This document shows positions 3,146 through 52,391 of a DNA stretch of 64,000 nucleotides, piece by piece. The notes beneath the pieces were generated by a model, which searched no databases, was not told the origin of the DNA, and saw nothing but the letters and a program-made list of their open reading frames with translations. Each line of letters starts with the position of its first letter. Within the stretch, counting starts at the first letter, position 1. Source of the stretch: a virus; the IMG/VR virus record IMGVR_UViG_3300030329_005426, positions 32,001 through 96,000 of that record; one strand, 5' to 3'. A program made the translations under genes and the position numbers.

Positions 3146-3168
3146 TATTGATCTCCTTGTTATGTTCT

Positions 3169-3176
3169 TATTTATA
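3169..3176 (-). promoter_or_regulatory. T4-type late promoter TATAAATA upstream of gp13
   Basis: Exact TATAAATA on the minus strand, followed by an AAGGAG RBS before gp13. Confidence 0.75.
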
Positions 3177-3194
3177 AGGAGATTGTATGTAGCT

Positions 3195-4193
3195 TTACAA
3201 CAAGGCTTTGAATTCCTCGGTAAATTGAATACACCATTTTTTAGGAACGCTAGTTGTTACCTTAAAGAACTGCCTTTCAGGATTATCTAGCGACTTATAA
3301 TAGATACCATCTCTGACCAAAATGCCCTTTTCAGATAAACTTTTCCATAAATCTGTCGAATTATGTTGAGGCAAGTCAATCCACAAACTATTCCCAAAAT
3401 TAAATTCATATGGAAATTCTACAGGCATATCTTTCAAATTATCTATAATATAATCTCTGTTCGCAATAGTAGTTTTCTTTAATTTAGGTAGCCATTCTGA
3501 TTTAGTATGTAAGGAAGCACCTGCAGCAAGTTGTCCAATGCTACTGCTCCCTAACTGGTTACCTCTTAATCCAAATACCGCTTTCATATTATCGGGGCTA
3601 CATACAACTGCTCCGGTTCTTAGACCAGCTAAACCTGGTGATTTGGAATAACTAAGAGTAATAAATGTTTTCTCTGGATAATCTTGGTATATTGCATAAT
3701 ATTCATTTAAAAAATCTTTGTAGGTGCAATCATATAATATCCATGCACCGTTTTCTTTTGCCGCGTCTTTAATTTCAATTAATTCATCTACCATATAGGT
3801 ATGCCCTATGGGATTTTGTGGATTAACAATATTAATAACATCAGCGCCTTGAATATGTTTAGGCTTTATCTTTCCAGGAACCAAAAACTGAGGCATTTCT
3901 TTAACATATTCGCGCGGCCATTTCCAAGCTGGATCAGAATCGATAAATCGACCGTTAGAATTTTTTAGAAACATTAATATTTGATATATCGCTGGGCCAG
4001 CGCCATCAGTGATACAAACCTTTGCATCTGTATCGGACAATCCAATATCATCTAATATTTGTTCATGTAGCCAATCATAGCCCATCGGTGGTGGATAATT
4101 TTGAAATAAATTATCTCTTATTCCGGCTCTAATAGTTCTTTTCATAAAACTAGGAGCAGGAAGATGACATGTATTTTGATCCATTGTAAGCAT
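3195..4193 (-). CDS. PLP-dependent class I/II aminotransferase or decarboxylase (HisC/CobD-like fold)
   Basis: NPQNPIG, DCTY and SYSKSPGLAGLRTG (PLP-lysine motif). Confidence 0.85.
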   Translation of the reverse strand: MLTMDQNTCHLPAPSFMKRTIRAGIRDNLFQNYPPPMGYDWLHEQILDDIGLSDTDAKVCITDGAGPAIYQILMFLKNSNGRFIDSDPAWKWPREYVKEMPQFLVPGKIKPKHIQGADVINIVNPQNPIGHTYMVDELIEIKDAAKENGAWILYDCTYKDFLNEYYAIYQDYPEKTFITLSYSKSPGLAGLRTGAVVCSPDNMKAVFGLRGNQLGSSSIGQLAAGASLHTKSEWLPKLKKTTIANRDYIIDNLKDMPVEFPYEFNFGNSLWIDLPQHNSTDLWKSLSEKGILVRDGIYYKSLDNPERQFFKVTTSVPKKWCIQFTEEFKALL

Positions 4194-5329
4194 TACGGAA
4201 CCCTCCATTCAATACCACGGTGTTGCCATTCATTGCTTACAACTAGTTGAGCCCAATCTGCTATCTGACCATATATGTCACTACATACCTCGCCCATTAC
4301 GTGAAAGCAATCTTCATACATCCATACATCACCATGTGGAATATTTTCTTTTACAAATGATATAGCTTGTTCAGGTGGGCATAATTCATCCATCTCACCA
4401 CCTACTAATAGATAAGGCATTTTTATTTTTTTAGCTCTTGCTATTAGTTGCTTATCAATTGCATTACAGTACTTATCAAATTTCTTTTCATCATGTATAT
4501 TAGCCATTTCCATAAAAATACGTCTAAAATTAGGCTGTGCTTGATTAAAGATTATCTCTGTATTTCCAACATTTGACATCTGGCCTATACATGCAACTAC
4601 ACTGGAATTTTTAGCAGCCGCTTCAATTACCCAACGTGTACCAAAGCTCATCCCAAATAATACTACTTGTTTCGAGCGGCCTGGTACACCCAATCCCTTA
4701 ATCATTGTATCTATAGCTTCGGACATATTATCAATTTTAATATAATTTTCATCCATCATTTGACTTACGTGTCCAGGGCCTTCAATTACAACTACATTAA
4801 AACCTCTATTATACCACGGGTTATTATACGGAAATAATACCTCTTCTTTAAATTGATCCATGCCGGGTACTATTACAACATAGGGAACATGAGGATCGTG
4901 TTCCATCACTAAAGCACTATAACCATTACCTCTGATTGTTCTAGCCTTTTCGAAATGTTGTTCGAAATGGGCCCAACAAATTTTTAATTGGCCATAATAT
5001 TCTATCTTTTTAGGATGCCGAATACCTTTAATGGTATGTTGAGCACGGCCGTAACACATAGCAGCTCTATGATAAAATTCGGCTTTTGTTGTAGATGAAA
5101 TAGCACTTCTAGCCATAAGTTCTAATTTATGACCTTGCTTCGCCCAGCTTTTAGAGTAAGAGCGACGACCAGTAATTCTACTATATACTTGTTGTAGATC
5201 ACTATACTTATATCCACGCTCTAATCGTTGAGCTAGAACGCCAGGATGAAGTGTATCCTCATTTTCACTTAATTTTAAAAAATTATCGAATACCCAATTC
5301 TGGTCGTTTCTGGATTTGGTCAGACTCAT
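4193..5329 (-). CDS. alpha/beta hydrolase (FrsA / dihydropseudooxynicotine hydrolase-like)
   Basis: PGMDQFKEE, EGPG, nucleophile elbow GMSFG, acid residue in GGEMDELCP, His in DCFH. Confidence 0.8.
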   Translation of the reverse strand: MSLTKSRNDQNWVFDNFLKLSENEDTLHPGVLAQRLERGYKYSDLQQVYSRITGRRSYSKSWAKQGHKLELMARSAISSTTKAEFYHRAAMCYGRAQHTIKGIRHPKKIEYYGQLKICWAHFEQHFEKARTIRGNGYSALVMEHDPHVPYVVIVPGMDQFKEEVLFPYNNPWYNRGFNVVVIEGPGHVSQMMDENYIKIDNMSEAIDTMIKGLGVPGRSKQVVLFGMSFGTRWVIEAAAKNSSVVACIGQMSNVGNTEIIFNQAQPNFRRIFMEMANIHDEKKFDKYCNAIDKQLIARAKKIKMPYLLVGGEMDELCPPEQAISFVKENIPHGDVWMYEDCFHVMGEVCSDIYGQIADWAQLVVSNEWQHRGIEWRVP

Positions 5330-5840
5330 TTACCATCCACCCTTTCTCATAAAAGTTCACGAGTTCATCGAATGTAAAACCACTACCATCATGTGCTTTG
5401 TCATAGAAACTAATTGTCAAAAGATAACGATGTAAATTAGGATGATCATTCTCAATCTTATGTGGATTCATTGTATTAAAGATTAGAGGTACGTTTGGTT
5501 GATAAGGTACTTCATATCTTTCAAACGTATTAGGTTCAACCATCCAACAACGCTGTGTATCGTTTTGCGCTGTTAGTAACATATTAATCGCACATGTACG
5601 CCTACCATCTTTATGCCAATTAAACCAACTATTAGCATAGAATTTCCCGACATAGGCATAATCAATCTTAACATAGAATAGATTTTTAAGATATGTCATA
5701 TATTCATCAGGTAAAGGAATAGCATATAACCCATAATCATTTGGATTATCATTATCCTCCTTGCCCAACCATTCAAAGATAGGTCCTGTGTTAATATTTA
5801 CTTTTGGAATGTGGTGCCACATTCCCTTCATATTTTCCAT
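5283..5840 (-). CDS. putative Fe(II)/2OG oxygenase-like (DSBH/cupin) protein
   Basis: WHKD (HxD) ... NPHKI distal His ... RYLLTISF. Confidence 0.6.
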   Translation of the reverse strand: MENMKGMWHHIPKVNINTGPIFEWLGKEDNDNPNDYGLYAIPLPDEYMTYLKNLFYVKIDYAYVGKFYANSWFNWHKDGRRTCAINMLLTAQNDTQRCWMVEPNTFERYEVPYQPNVPLIFNTMNPHKIENDHPNLHRYLLTISFYDKAHDGSGFTFDELVNFYEKGWMVNESDQIQKRPELGIR

Positions 5841-6199
5841 TATGTCTCCTTCGGATAGATCAAAAACACTACATGGGCATACTCAGGTACTACCCAGTTG
5901 TGCATTGTGTCGTGATCTAATATCATATCGCCCTTCTTGAAAACTAACAATTCAAAAGAGCGCTCTTTCTCTACTTGCATATGTATTTCACCATCGATAA
6001 CAACACCGAAAGTTAAACCACCCTTATGCCAGCTAGGTTCAACCGGCCCGTGATATACACAAGAACGCCACAGTCCAGTTAGCTCTCTGTCTGTTACATC
6101 CTTCCAACTATTTACGTACTCGAAACCAGGCCGGCCCTCCTTATATGTATGTGCTTCTTCCGCATATCTATCTTGCCACACCTCTGTAAACTTACTCAT
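5840..6199 (-). CDS. cupin-fold protein
   Basis: SWHKGG..GVVIDGEIHM...KKGDMILDHDTMHNW; likely start MSKFTE at 6199. Confidence 0.6.
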   Translation of the reverse strand: MSKFTEVWQDRYAEEAHTYKEGRPGFEYVNSWKDVTDRELTGLWRSCVYHGPVEPSWHKGGLTFGVVIDGEIHMQVEKERSFELLVFKKGDMILDHDTMHNWVVPEYAHVVFLIYPKET

Positions 6200-7199
6200 T
6201 ATGCCATCTCCCAAATCCGCCCATGTTCCAATCTTCGTCAATCCAAGCACCATAAGGAGACCCGTGATTAGGTCGTCCTGTCTTGGCTAAATGTTTGTGA
6301 ACATCAAATAATCTTTTACCTTTATGTCCGAAAAGATTCTTTGGTGTAGATTCTTGTTTAGTCCATTCAAATACGTCATCTGTTCTATAATATTCACGTA
6401 TACTTTCTTTTATTTGAAATTTGTGTATAGAATCATGGCACGTAGCTACAGGATTATTCATCGACCATAATTGAATAAGTGGATGTTCATAAAAATGAAT
6501 TAAATTGTTTATGCGTTTTCTTGCGATACAATGATATCTAGTAGCATTTAATTGCCACTTCATTGTCCAAAATAACCACCAAAATTCATCTGCATTTGAT
6601 TCCAAATCAAAAGGACATGCATCTAATACTGGTTGTAAAAATTCTTTGCGGCTATCAGGAATACCGTCATCAACATCCCATATAAAGCCAGTCCCTTCAA
6701 CCCAACCTTTTTTATTTGCTATACCCACTTCTCTAGTACAGTAATCACCAAACTCACCACTGATTAATGTTACCGGCTTTTCAGATAATTCAGATAACAT
6801 AAGATAAAAATCTTTAAATTTAAATCTTGGTGCTTTTCTAACAATATTTTTATAAAAATATGGATTTTCTTCTATACTCGTATCAGAATATACAATAGTA
6901 AAAAAGGCCCCTATCTTTAAAAGACTCGTAACAATATTAGTACTATCAATACCACCAGACCAAAGAACGTATAAAGGATCATCTGAGTTATTCCAGATAT
7001 CCTCAGCAACGCTTTGTGATACGTCACTAAATGAATCGTTTATTTGTTTGTATTTGGGAATAGGGGATATATCTACCTGATCATATGGTAGATCAATGCT
7101 GTGCGTTCTATCATAAATTCGTTTGTCTGTAAATTCGTGGCTGAGCTGGTTCCAGAATTCATCTTCAAACTCCGCCATAGGCGGCATAATATATTTCAT
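6192..7199 (-). CDS. asparagine-synthetase-like ATP pyrophosphatase (PP-loop) lacking a glutaminase domain
   Basis: LWSGGIDST PP-loop, ISGEFGD, HFY...QLWS, HKFQIKE. Confidence 0.7.
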   Translation of the reverse strand: MKYIMPPMAEFEDEFWNQLSHEFTDKRIYDRTHSIDLPYDQVDISPIPKYKQINDSFSDVSQSVAEDIWNNSDDPLYVLWSGGIDSTNIVTSLLKIGAFFTIVYSDTSIEENPYFYKNIVRKAPRFKFKDFYLMLSELSEKPVTLISGEFGDYCTREVGIANKKGWVEGTGFIWDVDDGIPDSRKEFLQPVLDACPFDLESNADEFWWLFWTMKWQLNATRYHCIARKRINNLIHFYEHPLIQLWSMNNPVATCHDSIHKFQIKESIREYYRTDDVFEWTKQESTPKNLFGHKGKRLFDVHKHLAKTGRPNHGSPYGAWIDEDWNMGGFGRWHNE

Positions 7200-7217
7200 A
7201 GTTTACATCACTTTATA

Positions 7218-7844
7218 TTATTCAGAAAAGATAGCAACTCGCTTTGTTAGAATTGTATTGATACGATCTTTTTCTTCATCAAGAATTTTAGCTGTAGATA
7301 CAGTCGCTGTTGATGCTACGTTGGATGAAGGCCAACCGGAACCGGTATTATAATTCTCAGCATTAGCAACCGCAGTCATATTTGTAATTTCAAGTAACTT
7401 TGAATCAGCTGTTGATCGAATAGACTGACGATAATTAAGAAGGGATTGAGACACAGTAGTATTAGAGGTATTAGCATTTAATTGAGTTTCATAGGCACGG
7501 ACAACTTGCCAATCACTCTGAACCAAAATAGCATAAGCTCTTTCATTAACTTCCATTGAAAGAGTATTTTTAACACTAGCAAGACTAGCAGCTGTTTTAG
7601 TTCCTGGATGTTTTACCACAGTTCCTGCATCATCATCTACAGTATATGTAGGTGAATCCCAGTTAACTGTATAAAAACGCTCATCGATACTTTCCAGTGT
7701 CATACTGTAAATACCAATATCCTTTAACTCGGAAGCTGTCCACGCAGAAAAAATCTGCGAAGAATGTTTAGTTCCGTCAATAGTAATATCTACAGGATTT
7801 AGTAACTCCTGTGATACTGACGATGATTCTACTAATGCCCACAT
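7218..7844 (-). CDS. phage tail fibre assembly/chaperone-like protein
   Basis: IFSAWTASELKDIGIY and SDWQVVR...YRQSIR motifs, seen in fibre-associated proteins; located next to the adhesin. Confidence 0.6.
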   Translation of the reverse strand: MWALVESSSVSQELLNPVDITIDGTKHSSQIFSAWTASELKDIGIYSMTLESIDERFYTVNWDSPTYTVDDDAGTVVKHPGTKTAASLASVKNTLSMEVNERAYAILVQSDWQVVRAYETQLNANTSNTTVSQSLLNYRQSIRSTADSKLLEITNMTAVANAENYNTGSGWPSSNVASTATVSTAKILDEEKDRINTILTKRVAIFSE

Positions 7845-7845
7845 A

Positions 7846-8631
7846 TCATTCGATCCCCAATATTTGATTTGTTGTCCGTTTATCTATCCATTTATGCCAT
7901 GGAGGTAAGTATTTATACGTTTTGTACATAGCAAATTCATGTTGTTCATCTTCATTTAGCTTATTAGTTATATCTTCTGGTAAAGGCTCATACTTACCGC
8001 TTTGATACATACCTTCTACTTTTCTGGCACATCCTACACAGTTTCTGCAATCTTTAAGTCCATCATCTGTCTTAATTGGATAATGACAAGATGTAGTTAG
8101 CTGAACTAATTCAGGTGGTAACATTTGTATAATATCACGTTTACACATATGATTAACCGGTCTCAACCACTGAACATTATTATCAGTTGCTGCTTTAAAT
8201 ATTTTTAAAGCCTTATTAAATAAAGCAGAACCTGTTGTTGTTTCATCAGTTGCTATTCTCCCAGTCGCAATAGCCCTTGTATGATTTTCCCATTCAATAG
8301 GAATATGATCAGGAAGTACCATACATGCACCCAACATTGCATATAATAAATGATCTGGTGGCGCGCCTGTCCCATTAAAGGAAAAGCGTGACCATGTAAA
8401 TCGCTCTATCCATTTAGGCCCGTCACCTGTATTAGCAGGATCCCGTAACCAATTAACTACATTTTGTGCTGCTTGAAATTCTGAGGAATGCTTATGAGAA
8501 CCCCAACGATCCATAATAAGATGATGAATATGAACCGTATATCCATCTTGTATCATTTTATAAATCATTCCAGTAGAATCTAATCCACCAGACAGAAAAG
8601 CAACCACCTTCACGTGATTTGATCTTGCCAT
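7846..8631 (-). CDS. divergent QueC-like PP-loop ATPase
   Basis: FLSGGLDST, KRDII and TTSCH...CRNCVGC zinc motif. Confidence 0.7.
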   Translation of the reverse strand: MARSNHVKVVAFLSGGLDSTGMIYKMIQDGYTVHIHHLIMDRWGSHKHSSEFQAAQNVVNWLRDPANTGDGPKWIERFTWSRFSFNGTGAPPDHLLYAMLGACMVLPDHIPIEWENHTRAIATGRIATDETTTGSALFNKALKIFKAATDNNVQWLRPVNHMCKRDIIQMLPPELVQLTTSCHYPIKTDDGLKDCRNCVGCARKVEGMYQSGKYEPLPEDITNKLNEDEQHEFAMYKTYKYLPPWHKWIDKRTTNQILGIE

Positions 8632-8632
8632 A

Positions 8633-9568
8633 TTAACTTACTATATCAATCCCTAATAGTAAATGAGATTTCCATGCCACAACGGGTTCAAATTTCGTAC
8701 TACAATGTAAGAAATCGGGTCTAAACATAATCATATTACCTATATACCATGGCATAACTTCTTTAATACTTAAACCCTGCTTCATTGCATTACTATGCTT
8801 ATCCCAATTAGGCGGTCCAAGGACAGCGTTAAAATTAGTACTTTTACTTCTTGTATCCTGCTCTGTAACACCTGTTAGGTCAGTTTTAATTACCATTCCG
8901 CCTGCAGTATTAGCTCTACCGTTAGCAAGGGCAGATGGTAAAAATACAACATTATTACCATATCGTTGTTCAAAAATAACTAATCCGGGACCAACTTCAG
9001 GAGATGAATTTGCGGCTGAAACCCAATGTCCATTTGCATTATATCCCGAACCAGAACCCCCAACAGCTACTGATAGGCCGTTGGCATATAACTGATTTGT
9101 TTTGCCTGAATTACCAACTGGTAAACCAAATTTATCCTTTTCTTCACCTTTCGTCGAAGTATCCGATCCCCAACCACTTGACATATAGGCTGGTTTAATA
9201 CGTAACTTAATTGGAATAATTACCGAATAATCATAATCAGAACCATCGGAATGAATTCTAGACGGGAAGGACCATGTTTTAACAGAACACGAATGTATTT
9301 TAATTTTTGTGCCTAATGAAGTCTCTATATCAGATTGTATTGCAGATTGAAGATCTGCGGGCACCGATACAGTTGATCCTAATAAGCGTTGTCTGCTTCC
9401 TGAAGTTGAACCTATAAGATTGTTTGCAGCTTGTTGATTAGTAGCAGATAAAACATTTTCTTTATAGATTATATCATACTTTTCCGGATTATAAACAGCA
9501 TCTCTGATCCAGTAATCAGATTCTGCTGCGCGAGATACAGTATTAGATATAGCGGATTTAACTTCCAT
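8633..9568 (-). CDS. putative Fe(II)/2OG oxygenase-like protein
   Basis: RIHSD (HxD) ... WYIGNMIMFRPDFLHCS; start ATG 9568 overlaps the adhesin stop (TAATG). Confidence 0.55.
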   Translation of the reverse strand: MEVKSAISNTVSRAAESDYWIRDAVYNPEKYDIIYKENVLSATNQQAANNLIGSTSGSRQRLLGSTVSVPADLQSAIQSDIETSLGTKIKIHSCSVKTWSFPSRIHSDGSDYDYSVIIPIKLRIKPAYMSSGWGSDTSTKGEEKDKFGLPVGNSGKTNQLYANGLSVAVGGSGSGYNANGHWVSAANSSPEVGPGLVIFEQRYGNNVVFLPSALANGRANTAGGMVIKTDLTGVTEQDTRSKSTNFNAVLGPPNWDKHSNAMKQGLSIKEVMPWYIGNMIMFRPDFLHCSTKFEPVVAWKSHLLLGIDIVS

Positions 9569-10254
9569 TAACTTGCACTCCCACGCCGAGTTCCTGTCGC
9601 AGACCAAGTAATAGTATTACCATTTGAAACAATATAATAACCCGCAGCACCTCCTGATCCCTGTGGTGAAGGTTGACCTGCTGTACCAAGCCCGCCACCA
9701 GTACCAGCATTATGCCCAGCGGGACCACCAGCAGATGTACTAGCACCCGGATTACCCGGAGCATATCCTGCACCACCACCACCGGCACCTCCAGGATGTG
9801 TTGTGGGAGGGGTCGGATTAGGCGGATCATTTTCACCACCTGGTTGGTTTGGATTCGGACTAGATGTAGGATTACCTTGACGTCCTGCACCACCACCACC
9901 AGATACAGCACTATTATTTTGAATAGTCATTGGATATTGTGCACTAATAGCAGTACCACCGGCGACATGAGGTGCATTACCACCAGCACCCATAATATCA
10001 CCGTTATTAATAACAGTAATTTTGGAGCCAGGTGGAAATGGGTTCCCGGTAAGGAAGGCCGCGTTTGGTGAATTTGGGGCACCTTGAATTACACCAGAAT
10101 TGATTGTTACCGTAACATCTATAGGCCGGTTGGGATTCCAGTTTGAATTAGCAAGTATATAAGTGCGCATGTTGTGTTGGGTAGTTGTAGAACTTGTTAT
10201 ACTATATGAGTATAAAAAAGTTCCTCCACCGAACCATGGATTTCCTAACGCCAT
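9568..10254 (-). CDS. gp38-like glycine-rich receptor-binding adhesin
   Basis: VTVTINSGV, NNGDIMGAGG, IQNNSAVSGGGGAG, repeated poly-Gly motifs and C-terminal GGAAG...TW..TGTRRGS follow the T2/T6/S16 gp38 layout. Confidence 0.75.
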   Translation of the reverse strand: MALGNPWFGGGTFLYSYSITSSTTTQHNMRTYILANSNWNPNRPIDVTVTINSGVIQGAPNSPNAAFLTGNPFPPGSKITVINNGDIMGAGGNAPHVAGGTAISAQYPMTIQNNSAVSGGGGAGRQGNPTSSPNPNQPGGENDPPNPTPPTTHPGGAGGGGAGYAPGNPGASTSAGGPAGHNAGTGGGLGTAGQPSPQGSGGAAGYYIVSNGNTITWSATGTRRGSAS

Positions 10255-10286
10255 ATCATAAACCCTTCGTAGAATGCTTTATGAAT

Positions 10287-10315
10287 ATTATAAGGCATCT
10301 TAAACATAATATCAA
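10287..10315 (-). promoter_or_regulatory. sigma70-type (early) promoter with an overlapping palindrome
   Basis: TTGATA-N17-TATAAT on the minus strand; imperfect inverted repeat ATGCTTTATGA-ATA-TTATAAGGCAT covers the -10 box. Confidence 0.65.
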
Positions 10316-21024: not shown

Positions 21025-21032
21025 TATTTATA
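21025..21032 (-). promoter_or_regulatory. T4-type late promoter upstream of gp8
   Basis: Exact TATAAATA in the intergenic gap. Confidence 0.65.
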
Positions 21033-32023: not shown

Positions 32024-32613
32024 TGGTCGCATATGTGTTCGATAGAATCCTTGCTAAAGGCGTTCGGGCTGGCCAGTTACCTGCTCGTACACAAGGAGCA
32101 AGAGATTGGTTCCGCGAAGCAGCCAGGAAAACCTCGGCATCACCAGAAGGAATTATGCGTGGTGCTGATAAATCTGACTTCGCTAACAGTGGTGCGTTTG
32201 GTGCTATGTTTATGTTCTATTACGATCCAAAGCATAAAGCTACGTTACCATATTATGATACCTTTCCGTTAGTATTTCCTTTTTCTAAGGCTCCTGGAGG
32301 GTTTATGGGCTTGAATATGCATTATCTACCTCTCCGGCTGAGGGCTAGGCTAATGGATGCATTATATGAAACAGCATCTAATGACAAATACGATGACACC
32401 ACTAAACTTAGACTTAGTTATAATATATTAAATGCTTCTGCTCGTTATAAATATTACAAACCAACAGTTCATCACTATCTGACCGATCATCTTAGATCAC
32501 GTTTATTACGTATATCATCATCTGACTGGGATACAGCATTATTCTTACCGGTCGAACGTTTTGAGAAAGCATCTAAGACTAAAGTCTGGGCCGATAGCAG
32601 GAAAGCAGTATAA
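32023..32613 (+). CDS. DNA end protector (T4 gp2-like)
   Basis: FYYDPKHKATLPYYDTFPL, GLNMHYLP, LFLPVERF. Confidence 0.92.
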   Translation: MVAYVFDRILAKGVRAGQLPARTQGARDWFREAARKTSASPEGIMRGADKSDFANSGAFGAMFMFYYDPKHKATLPYYDTFPLVFPFSKAPGGFMGLNMHYLPLRLRARLMDALYETASNDKYDDTTKLRLSYNILNASARYKYYKPTVHHYLTDHLRSRLLRISSSDWDTALFLPVERFEKASKTKVWADSRKAV

Positions 32614-49496: not shown

Positions 49497-49979
49497 CTAA
49501 AATCGAGATAAAAATCGCGCAATATGATGGACAAATGGTAGCAAGGATACGGCCATCAGCAAGTTCATTCCTGTATGGGCCATCGCTATCCGCAGCGTAT
49601 CACCCTTAGGCATACCGTCAGATACAAACACACCGGCTAGCCATATTGTTCCTGTTGTGCCAATATTAGCTCCAAGCACAGCTGCAACTGCAGCAGGTAG
49701 GGGCACTGCTCCTGATGCTACGAGTGCAATGATAGCTGTAGTGCTCAACGATGATGATTGCCACAGTAGTGTCATAATGATACCACCAAGAAACATCCAA
49801 TATGGGTTGTGGATGAAATAGCTTAGATGGTCAAGGTTGCCCATCGACTTCATTCCACCAGAAAACATCTTTAATCCGATGTAGAATACGACGAGCCCGA
49901 CGAGGGCAGTAATAACAGGGTTTCCTAGATCCATTTTTTTTACCTTCTTAACTAATTTTTTTGTGTCATTCATTGTCAT
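49497..49979 (-). CDS. half-size Na+/Pi cotransporter family protein
   Basis: GLKMFSGGMK, LLWQSSSLSTT, LGANIGTT; one repeat only; start uncertain. Confidence 0.8.
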   Translation of the reverse strand: MTMNDTKKLVKKVKKMDLGNPVITALVGLVVFYIGLKMFSGGMKSMGNLDHLSYFIHNPYWMFLGGIIMTLLWQSSSLSTTAIIALVASGAVPLPAAVAAVLGANIGTTGTIWLAGVFVSDGMPKGDTLRIAMAHTGMNLLMAVSLLPFVHHIARFLSRF

Positions 49980-50045
49980 TAAATTATCCCCTGACTTTGA
50001 CTTCTCGCTATTTAGCAAAGAGGCATTTTTTACAGTTTGATGACA

Positions 50046-51344: not shown

Positions 51345-52391
51345 TTATTGACGGGCGCACCAGTCTTTTAAATCTTTGTTATCTTGCATGATGGTTAAAT
51401 TTGGTAATTTATTCATAATACCAGAGTTATTGCGATTAATACATGTGCCATCGTCCTTGATAGCCATTAAATAATATCTCGGCAAGATATTAGCCCTGAT
51501 TTCTCTAATCTTTTTTTCGTTGTTTCGAATTGACCAATTACCGGCTTTGCTGAAAGCCCAACCCTCTAAGTTGGTATGAGAAGCGATGATATTCCGAAGC
51601 TCCATTTTATTTTTGAGATGTTCACTATCATCATCTCTATTAAATGGCACCAACGAGCCATCGATGATACGATTAATGAAATATTTTTCAATCATCTCTT
51701 CATCATAGAACGGCATGATATTTTCTAGATTAATGCGGTGGCCTTTAAAATTTTGAAAAAATCTATATCGCCTGCTAACGCGTCCAAATCGATTTCTTAT
51801 ATACCACACGCGCTTTAGATCACCTTTCAAATGATCTTCGCCCATAGAGCCGTATAAAGCATCTGCGGATCCGCATTCAACAACAACATGATTAGTAGGA
51901 TCAGCAACCGCGAAAAGGCTATCATCTGTATGAATTTTATGGTGATGTTTAGCTACTACTGGCCAGTAACCAGGGCATTCTTCTATACTAGAAGGTGTTA
52001 ATTCAATGTGAATTCTGGGCGTACCGAATTTTAGTAAGACGGCAAGAGCAGCAGTTGAATCAATTCCGCCGGACCAGAAAAATTGAATAGGTTTTTTTCT
52101 ATTAATTATCTGCTCAGCCCGGCGGAACATAAGTTCTTCTAACGACGCAGAGTTGCTATACTCGAATGGTGGCATAGTATCAGACGTAGTCTGAAAAGTG
52201 TATCTATACTTATGACAGCGATCGACAATGCAAGTACCACGTACTCTATTCATTATCTTCTTTTCTTTAGCTATATGATCTATAAAATCTGCTAATGCAG
52301 ATTCCGGAAAACCATTTTCCATGTTAACCATATGCTGAAGCCAATTGCGGATATAATTAGTATATCCTTTATTATAAAATACTAGTGCCAT
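51345..52391 (-). CDS. asparagine-synthetase-like PP-loop protein (paralog of 6192-7199)
   Basis: FFWSGGIDST, TPSSIEE.P, ECGSADALYG, PFY, KMELR. Confidence 0.7.
   Translation of the reverse strand: MALVFYNKGYTNYIRNWLQHMVNMENGFPESALADFIDHIAKEKKIMNRVRGTCIVDRCHKYRYTFQTTSDTMPPFEYSNSASLEELMFRRAEQIINRKKPIQFFWSGGIDSTAALAVLLKFGTPRIHIELTPSSIEECPGYWPVVAKHHHKIHTDDSLFAVADPTNHVVVECGSADALYGSMGEDHLKGDLKRVWYIRNRFGRVSRRYRFFQNFKGHRINLENIMPFYDEEMIEKYFINRIIDGSLVPFNRDDDSEHLKNKMELRNIIASHTNLEGWAFSKAGNWSIRNNEKKIREIRANILPRYYLMAIKDDGTCINRNNSGIMNKLPNLTIMQDNKDLKDWCARQ

Follow-up and report, generated by a model that had tools for sequence, protein, structure and literature searches.

The DNA analysed here, referred to as the window, is a stretch of 64,000 nucleotides comprising bases 32001–96000 of the 154-kb IMG/VR record IMGVR_UViG_3300030329_005426, which is estimated to be 85% complete and is classed as linear. 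Near its start lies a block of nine open reading frames (ORFs), all on the minus strand and running from 10254 to 3195, in which seven genes for enzymes follow the gene for a gp38-like adhesin. In the order of transcription, the products are the adhesin, orf324, a QueC-like protein, orf208, a 335-residue PP-loop ATPase, orf137, orf185, an α/β hydrolase and a pyridoxal phosphate (PLP)-dependent aminotransferase (Table 1). Baseplate wedge proteins, a 2052-residue structural protein and fibre-like proteins are encoded 5′ of the block; the neck proteins gp13 and gp14, and then the sheath stabiliser gp15, are encoded 3′ of it. Judged by sequence, these flanking genes identify the source, an uncultured marine phage, as a T4-like myophage.

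An initial annotation of this DNA had described a contiguous block with overlapping or abutting junctions, and this description holds: the nine co-oriented ORFs are joined tightly throughout. The stop codon of the adhesin gene and the start codon of orf324 (ATG at 9568) share the sequence TAATG, a single nucleotide separates the QueC-like gene from orf208, and a scan of the region revealed no conspicuous terminator-like site within the block. The orf324 and QueC-like genes are translationally coupled to the adhesin gene. The fold assignments of the same annotation are borne out by profile or fold matches for the gp38-like adhesin, the QueC-like protein, the orf185 oxygenase, the hydrolase and the PLP enzyme and, more tentatively, for the chaperone-like protein, whereas the labels 'Asn-synthetase-like', 'cupin' and, for orf324, 'oxygenase' are weakly supported.

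Table 1 Features of the block and its boundaries, in the order of transcription (window coordinates)
Feature	Position	Strand	Basis or remark
Sigma-70-like promoter TTGATA-17-TATAAT, in the 66-nt gap 5′ of the adhesin gene	10287..10315	-	11/12 matches
gp38-like Gly/Pro-rich fibre-tip adhesin, 228 aa	9568..10254	-	PF05268, PHROGs
orf324/311, possible 2-oxoglutarate (2OG)-Fe(II) oxygenase-like protein, large insertion	8633..9568	-	ESM Atlas neighbours
Divergent QueC-family PP-loop ATPase, tetracysteine zinc motif, 261 aa	7846..8631	-	PF06508, phrog_1550, 2pg3
T4-type late-promoter motif TATAAATA, inside the 3′ end of the QueC-like gene	7910..7917	-	66 nt before orf208 start
orf208, tail-fibre assembly chaperone-like (DUF4376-like)	7218..7844	-	BFVD fold matches, homologue positions
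Virus-type PP-loop ATPase, 'AsnB-like', 335 aa, WSGGIDST, no glutaminase domain	6192..7199	-	PP-loop
orf137, small cupin-like protein, codon-usage outlier	5840..6253	-	Cupin_2 below cut-off
orf185, 2OG-Fe(II) oxygenase, prolyl-hydroxylase-like double-stranded β-helix	5283..5840	-	AlphaFold2/Foldseek, alignment
FrsA-like α/β serine hydrolase, 378 aa	4193..5329	-	Hydrolase_4, Peptidase_S9, triad
Class I/II PLP-dependent aminotransferase, HisC/CobD-like	3195..4208	-	PF00155, NF004870, lysine motif
gp13 late promoter TATAAATA (3169-3176) in the loop of a hairpin covering the gp13 Shine–Dalgarno sequence	3146..3190	-	Downstream boundary of the island

The adhesin is assigned to the gp38 group by hidden Markov model (HMM) match, glycine richness and position. 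It matches PF05268 with 27.4 bits (cut-off 25) over residues 21–227, as well as two tail fibre or host specificity families, phrog_11439 and phrog_2056; 47 Gly, 25 Pro and 24 Asn are found among its 228 residues, and its gene follows two fibre-like genes. The orf208 product matches nothing in Pfam or PHROG. Its AlphaFold2 model (overall predicted local distance difference test score (pLDDT) 60, with a confident N-terminal domain) retrieves only non-specific helical hairpins from the PDB; its Foldseek matches in BFVD, of modest quality (E 1e-4 to 1e-2, template modelling (TM) score 0.2-0.45), bear the names phage tail assembly chaperone or DUF4376. Homologues of orf208 in six relatives are always flanked by fibre genes.

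Between these two fibre-related genes lie orf324 and the QueC-like gene, which we term module A. Sequence searches with orf324 against Pfam, PHROG, NCBIfam and the PDB returned no match. Its structural neighbours in the ESM Atlas are viral clusters (TM score 0.45-0.57) in which 10-29% of members carry DUF6445 or PF13640, including a cluster at TM score 0.45 with PF13640 in 29% of its members. The sequence contains IHSDG and FLHCS, which can be read against an HxD...H triad. These features weakly support a 2OG-Fe(II) oxygenase-like assignment.

The QueC-like protein is more firmly placed at the level of the family. PF06508 matches its N-terminal residues 8-60, phrog_1550 is also matched, and a profile built from its alignment (A5) retrieves the QueC structure 2pg3 from the PDB at E 1.5e-5 over residues 7-207. 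The PP-loop LSGGLDST (residues 13-20) is invariant in six homologues, and four invariant cysteines (C182-x12-C195-xx-C198-xx-C201) form a spacing variant of C(x)8CxxCxxC. The canonical QueC motifs YxQxHxxE, VPxRN and YPDC, which form the pocket for 7-carboxy-7-deazaguanine (CDG) and without which, as mutagenesis has shown, CDG is not converted (Libby et al. 2026, PMC13329287), are absent from the protein; the aligned positions read instead VHIHHLIMD, APPDHLLY and GRIATDE. Against the equivalog HMM TIGR00364 it scores 32.1 bits, short of the cut-off of 150.3.

Two other members of the QueC family, Cap9 and QatC, are known to attach a nucleobase (a deazapurine) to the N-termini of proteins (PMC13329287). 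The PADLOC defence-system models gave a generic QueC match at the N-terminus of the QueC-like protein only, and no QatC match. The Cap9 structure 9nto aligns with the QueC-like profile through the P-loop alone (E 0.043), and HMM annotation of the ORFs in the block revealed no QatABD or CD-NTase partner genes. The family is small: among 1.8 billion proteins, four representatives, including that of the query itself, were found below 1e-30, and searches of IMG/VR yielded no relatives, whether the query was the QueC-like protein alone, alignment A1, alignment A5 or orf324. On its motifs, the cassette protein is best described as belonging to a QueC-family lineage that has lost the CDG pocket.

Outside the window, the genome also codes for canonical QueC, FolE and QueD (G000:C1:221-1015, 4393-4926 and 7083-7466; L082, L085 and L086), with QueC matching PF06508 over its full length (169.5 bits, E 9e-50). 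The phage thus appears to have its own preQ0-type 7-deazaguanine pathway. A search for a TGT/DpdA transglycosylase by means of PF01702 found none. The last 80 codons of the canonical QueC gene recur, near-identical, at the opposite end of the record (G000:C1:153844-154086), which suggests either terminal redundancy or the assembly of a circularly permuted population.

The 335-residue ATPase, orf185 and the α/β hydrolase are grouped here as module B. Residues S81, G82, G83, D85 and S86 of the ATPase are invariant in four paralogues or homologues, placing it in the PP-loop superfamily. PF00733 does not match it even at E up to 10, about 80 residues lie N-terminal to the PP-loop with no N-terminal nucleophile (Ntn) glutaminase domain among them, and the match of its profile to asparagine synthetase (AsnS) in the PDB is confined to the P-loop (E 0.4). 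The name 'Asparagine synthase family' derives from ESM Atlas cluster labels and serves as a lead only. Two paralogues are encoded elsewhere, one in the window (51345-52391), near PhoH and a PD-(D/E)XK nuclease, and the other, 32% identical, in the genome (129508-130713), directly 3′ of a gp41-like DnaB helicase. Also near PhoH, a 173-residue ORF (window 49497-50018) matches the Na+/Pi-cotransporter family PF02690 at E 1.4e-15 and may be a fragment of a phosphate-related auxiliary metabolic gene (AMG).

The orf185 product, read in the initial annotation as a second HxD...H oxygenase, does adopt a 2OG-oxygenase fold in its AlphaFold2 model (pLDDT 77, predicted TM score 0.77). The best Foldseek matches in the PDB are the Pseudomonas putida prolyl 4-hydroxylase (P4H), PHD2 and proline 3-/4-hydroxylases, with probability 1.0 and TM scores of about 0.5. 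H76-x-D78, H127 and R138 are invariant in an alignment of eight sequences, in which R138 would be the basic residue for 2OG. The hydrolase matches Hydrolase_4 (30.5 bits, cut-off 27) and Peptidase_S9, and its triad, S228 (GMS228FG, within G-x-S-x-G), D314 and H343, is invariant in 20 homologues. Its relatives are numerous: phage-like homologues are 57-75% identical to it, and bacterial ones, 39-47% identical, are found in Nitrospinota and Alphaproteobacteria. It is on homologues in the latter range of identity, and not on the query, that PF06500 is recorded.

Two further genes accompany module B at this locus. The orf137 product scores below the cut-off for Cupin_2 (15.8 bits against 27.2, E 0.011). 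Its G+C content at third codon positions (GC3) is 0.435 and its codon adaptation index (CAI) 0.52, compared with 0.21-0.29 and 0.64-0.70 for its neighbours; the codon usage of every other cassette gene fits that of the phage itself. Because orf137 is the sole codon-usage outlier of the block and has no counterpart in a trio of module B genes found on another phage fragment (L089, described below), it is probably a recent insertion into module B. The PLP enzyme, the last product of the block, matches PF00155 with 97.2 bits (cut-off 19.7) and NF004870 with 220 bits, below the cut-off of 351, and shares the lysine motif S-Y-S-K189-S-P-G-L-A-G-L-R with its homologue in a related contig (L005).

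The nearest cellular homologues of the PLP enzyme are rare, occurring in 9 of 401 sampled Alphaproteobacteria at 31-36% identity. At the loci examined they lie in an operon with a short-chain dehydrogenase/reductase (SDR), an α/β hydrolase and an M20 amidohydrolase, which is adjoined by a TRAP transporter in both of the loci that were examined closely (L183, L184). By its gene content, this operon appears to be a small-molecule (catabolic) context. A cupin, a 2OG oxygenase and an aminotransferase also occur together in the ectoine pathway. EctB is a class III aminotransferase, whereas the phage enzyme, through PF00155, falls in class I/II, and orf137 has no ectoine-synthase match in Pfam; the ectoine reading was therefore dropped.

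The gp13 late promoter, which the initial annotation placed only after this block, is not the sole one downstream of the adhesin gene: a second TATAAATA lies at 7910-7917. In addition, a sigma-70-like promoter, the best match of the region, precedes the adhesin gene. Sequences of the form TTGA-N18-20-TATAAT occur five times in the window, all on the minus (coding) strand, against 1.7 expected, and the other four are in the early region at 44-59 kb. From its sequence, this promoter could provide pre-late transcription of the block. Besides the site at 7910-7917, the window has six TATAAATA sites: five are on the coding strand 24-92 nt 5′ of a gene start, and the sixth (32446-32453, plus strand) lies about 160 nt 5′ of a gene start, within the preceding gene. 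Late transcription of the block could arise by read-through from the TATAAATA at 21025-21032 and from the internal TATAAATA before orf208.

At the downstream boundary, the gp13 hairpin has a minimum free energy of -11.3 kcal/mol (z -4.2), and the gp13 ribosome-binding site is masked by its 3′ arm. This arrangement recurs clade-wide whatever gene lies 5′ of it, with TATAAATA in 63 of 76 relatives and strong hairpins in many. The hairpin is therefore uninformative on the timing of the island, and its interpretation as a sign of early expression was rejected. Together with the late promoter, it is a conserved boundary element of a hyperplastic locus.

The closest cultured phages by gp13 are Stenotrophomonas phage DLP_6 (59% identity), Caulobacter phage Cr30 (53.5%) and Pelagibacter phage Mosig (48%), and at least 268 uncultured IMG/VR relatives have gp13 at 66-75% identity. 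We compared the locus in 80 relatives retrieved through gp13. The gap between the fibre genes and gp13 is a hyperplastic locus in marine T4-like phages, and its gene sets differ greatly among these relatives. In one (L014), two 2OG oxygenases and a sulfotransferase accompany a fibre protein that has an S74 chaperone domain; in another (L069), the gap contains three 2OG oxygenases and a radical SAM/SPASM enzyme (L069:7680-8708, 1286-2485 and 9359-9982), a set that is peptide-maturase-like. In Mosig, the gap holds four 2OG oxygenases, ferrochelatase, endonuclease V, haem oxygenase and pcyA, of which the bilin and haem genes cannot have a fibre-tailoring role. A sulfotransferase beside 2OG oxygenases and an S74-domain fibre protein was observed in two relatives (L014:2901-5510, L060:8543-9340). 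This is the set of genes for which Iyer et al. 2010, who proposed secondary metabolites as the products of cyanophage oxygenase arrays, put forward hydroxylation and then sulfation of tail-collar/collagen-like proteins in certain bacterial operons (PMC2938197).

Relatives of the cassette enzymes themselves are scarce. A DNA search with the whole block against cultured phages gave no match, tblastn against the same phages with the PLP enzyme, the AsnB-like enzyme, orf324 and the adhesin gave zero or weak partial matches only, and neither of two metagenome scans with cassette queries gave any. None of the 80 relatives has the cassette enzymes, save one short contig (L005), the closest by gp14. 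This contig has the end of a hydrolase gene and, directly 5′ of gp13, a PLP gene whose product is 45% identical to that of the block; the order hydrolase, PLP enzyme, gp13 is kept. IMG/VR scans with alignments of the PLP enzyme (A2), the hydrolase (A3) and orf185 (A6) found only this contig or the single contig behind L089.

That second contig is a 45.9-kb fragment of a T4-like phage (G001; L089, L172) that codes for a PP-loop ATPase, an orf185 homologue (49% identity) and a hydrolase homologue (70%) in the same order as here. The trio adjoins an NAD-dependent DNA ligase amid homologues of the replication and early genes of the phage described here, and no fibre or adhesin homologue was found on the fragment. 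About 6 kb 5′ of the trio (L089:453-2811) lie genes for an NAD-dependent sugar epimerase/dehydratase and a DegT-type sugar aminotransferase. Because the trio lies in a replication region that has no fibre gene, module B is not tied to the adhesin; its distribution indicates a mobile unit independent of fibres.

We propose that the block forms a composite accessory island whose enzymes act on a small carboxylate or a small compound resembling an amino acid, a reading that we judge about evenly balanced between right and wrong. The initial annotation had named a small-molecule AMG island as the alternative to its own preference; it is now the interpretation that we favour. With two carboxylate adenylators, two hydroxylases, an aminotransferase and an ester or amide hydrolase predicted in one block, modification of a small carboxylate or amino-acid-like substrate is the simplest reading. 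Fold-type I aminotransferases and FrsA-type hydrolases act on small molecules.

In this proposal, the island would mix a fibre module, consisting of the gp38-like adhesin and the DUF4376-like chaperone with its own late-promoter motif, with at least two enzyme modules. Module A, whose genes are coupled in translation to that of the adhesin, would be the oxygenase-like protein and the divergent QueC-family ATPase, and module B the virus-type PP-loop ATPase, the prolyl-hydroxylase-like 2OG oxygenase and the FrsA-like serine hydrolase, apparently extended here by the recently inserted cupin-like gene and by the class I/II PLP aminotransferase. Within the infected cell, the enzymes may target a small metabolite, either a carboxylate or an amino-acid-like compound: the PP-loop enzymes would adenylate a carboxyl group, leading to an amide, the oxygenases would hydroxylate the substrate, the PLP enzyme would transaminate or decarboxylate it, and the hydrolase would cleave an ester or amide. 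The island could be transcribed from the sigma-70-like promoter before the late genes, supplemented by late read-through, and the gp13 hairpin and late promoter would shield the neck genes from insertions upstream.

Several observations weigh against this proposal. It names no substrate or product, and the enzymes match no described pathway, as the initial annotation had already remarked. The adhesin gene is coupled to orf324, and a gene for a fibre chaperone is nested among the enzymes. The orf185 product resembles protein prolyl hydroxylases as much as those acting on free proline, and the adhesin is rich in proline. The genes around the bacterial hydrolase homologues include neither a conserved partner nor any further member of the cassette. 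Parts of the cassette were found on just two other phage fragments, so the test of assortment between enzymes and adhesins is thin, with few cases. Finally, protein modification is known for the QueC-family enzymes Cap9 and QatC (PMC13329287).

Much of this speaks for the tailoring of the virion that the initial annotation had preferred, in which the gp38-like adhesin or another fibre protein would undergo post-translational modification by part or all of the enzyme set, for example by Pro or Asn hydroxylation or by amidation or ligation of a carboxylate, and so tune receptor binding or stability. The TAATG overlap between adhesin stop and orf324 start, the chaperone-like gene with its late-promoter motif, the P4H/PHD2-like fold of orf185 and the 25 prolines of the 228-residue adhesin would all fit such a role. 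So would the sulfotransferase and oxygenase, or radical SAM/SPASM, genes that lie beside fibre genes in relatives, the proposed action of co-encoded hydroxylases and sulfotransferases on tail-collar and collagen-like proteins (PMC2938197), the ligation of nucleobases to protein N-termini by Cap9 and QatC (PMC13329287) and the deazapurine precursors that the phage appears to make itself. However, where the trio of PP-loop ATPase, orf185 and hydrolase occurs elsewhere, neither a fibre nor an adhesin gene lies in its vicinity, no relative combines the adhesin with the enzymes, and obvious metabolic AMGs occupy the same locus in Mosig. Among cellular proteins, the closest homologues of the PLP enzyme belong to catabolic operons, in two cases next to a TRAP transporter, and we know of no protein-tailoring members among class I/II aminotransferases or FrsA-like hydrolases. 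The co-inheritance of enzymes and adhesin expected of tailoring in the manner of ribosomally synthesised and post-translationally modified peptides was not observed for module B, the only part to which this comparison applies; module B was found to assort independently of adhesin genes, an outcome named beforehand as one that would count against tailoring. The fibre-less fragment, the 80 relatives and the Mosig AMGs leave the adhesin-tailoring reading, which we consider unlikely as a whole, unsupported for the downstream half of the block. Tailoring is possible mainly for the orf324 and QueC-like pair that is coupled to the adhesin gene. There is a very slim chance, argued by analogy with Cap9 and QatC, that this pair would be a phage protein-conjugation system in which the QueC paralogue adenylates a carboxylate, perhaps a 7-deazapurine made by the phage, and ligates it to the adhesin or another fibre protein.

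It is likewise improbable, to a similar degree as virion tailoring, that the genes share no pathway at all and are morons or AMGs acquired independently in a permissive locus, each with its own target in the host. The variable content of the locus between relatives would be explained in this way, as would the codon usage of orf137 and its absence from the L089 trio, and the QueC-like protein, orf324 and the PLP enzyme were never found together elsewhere in the IMG/VR and metagenome scans. Yet the order PP-loop ATPase, orf185, hydrolase is kept in a second phage at another locus, the hydrolase and PLP genes are adjacent in L005, and the junctions here are tight throughout, with no conspicuous terminator-like site between genes. 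Still less probable, at a level only a little above that of protein conjugation by module A, is a role in deazapurine chemistry, in which the QueC-family enzyme, perhaps with partners, turns a 7-deazaguanine intermediate from FolE, QueD and QueC into a derivative of a DNA or tRNA base. The genome does have canonical FolE, QueD and QueC, and the cassette enzyme is a full-length QueC homologue with PP-loop and zinc motif; however, all three CDG-pocket motifs are missing, PF01702 detected no TGT/DpdA transglycosylase, and no other cassette enzyme belongs to a known deazaguanine pathway.

Enzyme islands between fibre and neck genes are among the commonest unexplained features of marine T4-like phage genomes, and whether they tailor the virion or host metabolites is a question that has stood for 15 years. 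The example described here delimits a compact mobile module, made up of the PP-loop ATPase, the P4H-like oxygenase and the FrsA-like hydrolase, which lends itself to expression and assay in isolation, and it adds a QueC-family lineage that lacks the CDG pocket. The conserved boundary formed by the gp13 hairpin and late promoter would make the locus permissive for insertions. Were virion tailoring to be correct, a phage adhesin would for the first time have been found to be enzymatically decorated through nucleobase or amide ligation; conjugation by module A, if real, would parallel the deazaguanylation by Cap9 or QatC while serving a virus and acting on its receptor-binding protein.

Parts of the island can be compared with several known systems. 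Amide- or β-lactam-forming enzymes derived from AsnB are paired with 2OG oxygenases in the systems of β-lactam synthetase with clavaminate synthase and of CarA with CarC. As in these, a glutaminase-less PP-loop adenylating enzyme is encoded here next to a 2OG oxygenase; by sequence, the 335-residue protein cannot be placed among them, as it has no PF00733 match and aligns with AsnS in the P-loop only (E 0.4). The Alphaproteobacterial PLP operon (L183, L184) resembles the phage island in pairing an aminotransferase with an α/β hydrolase. Its hydrolase, however, belongs to another α/β family, and the operon lacks a PP-loop enzyme, oxygenase and cupin, whereas the phage lacks the transporter, SDR and M20 genes.

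The cassette QueC-like enzyme shares with the QueC family (PF06508, Cap9 and QatC) the SGGxDS PP-loop, a C-terminal tetracysteine, here in a spacing variant, and full-length homology. It differs from QueC and Cap9 in having a conserved V-H-x-H-H strand in place of the lost motifs, and from QatC in lacking its N- and C-terminal extensions of about 400 aa, a match to the QatC model and QatABD partners. Its CH...CxxCxGC sequence resembles the Cluster 4 signature of the family, with a spacing of x12 compared with x5 (PMC13329287).

As a whole, the block is a fibre-to-neck hyperplastic island, placed before gp13 and variable in content. The tandem dioxygenase/halogenase array of Synechococcus phage Syn9 (PMC2938197) and genes 53-60 of Mosig EXVC030M (MT647606) occupy the same position between fibre genes and gp13, and like the island described here they contain 2OG-Fe(II) oxygenases and vary in content between relatives. 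Halogenase, haem and bilin genes are missing from the present island; in their stead it has a pair of PP-loop ATPases (one a QueC-family member), an FrsA-like hydrolase and a class I/II aminotransferase, and it differs further in its nested fibre chaperone gene. The gene content is unusual, and the locus is of a known kind.

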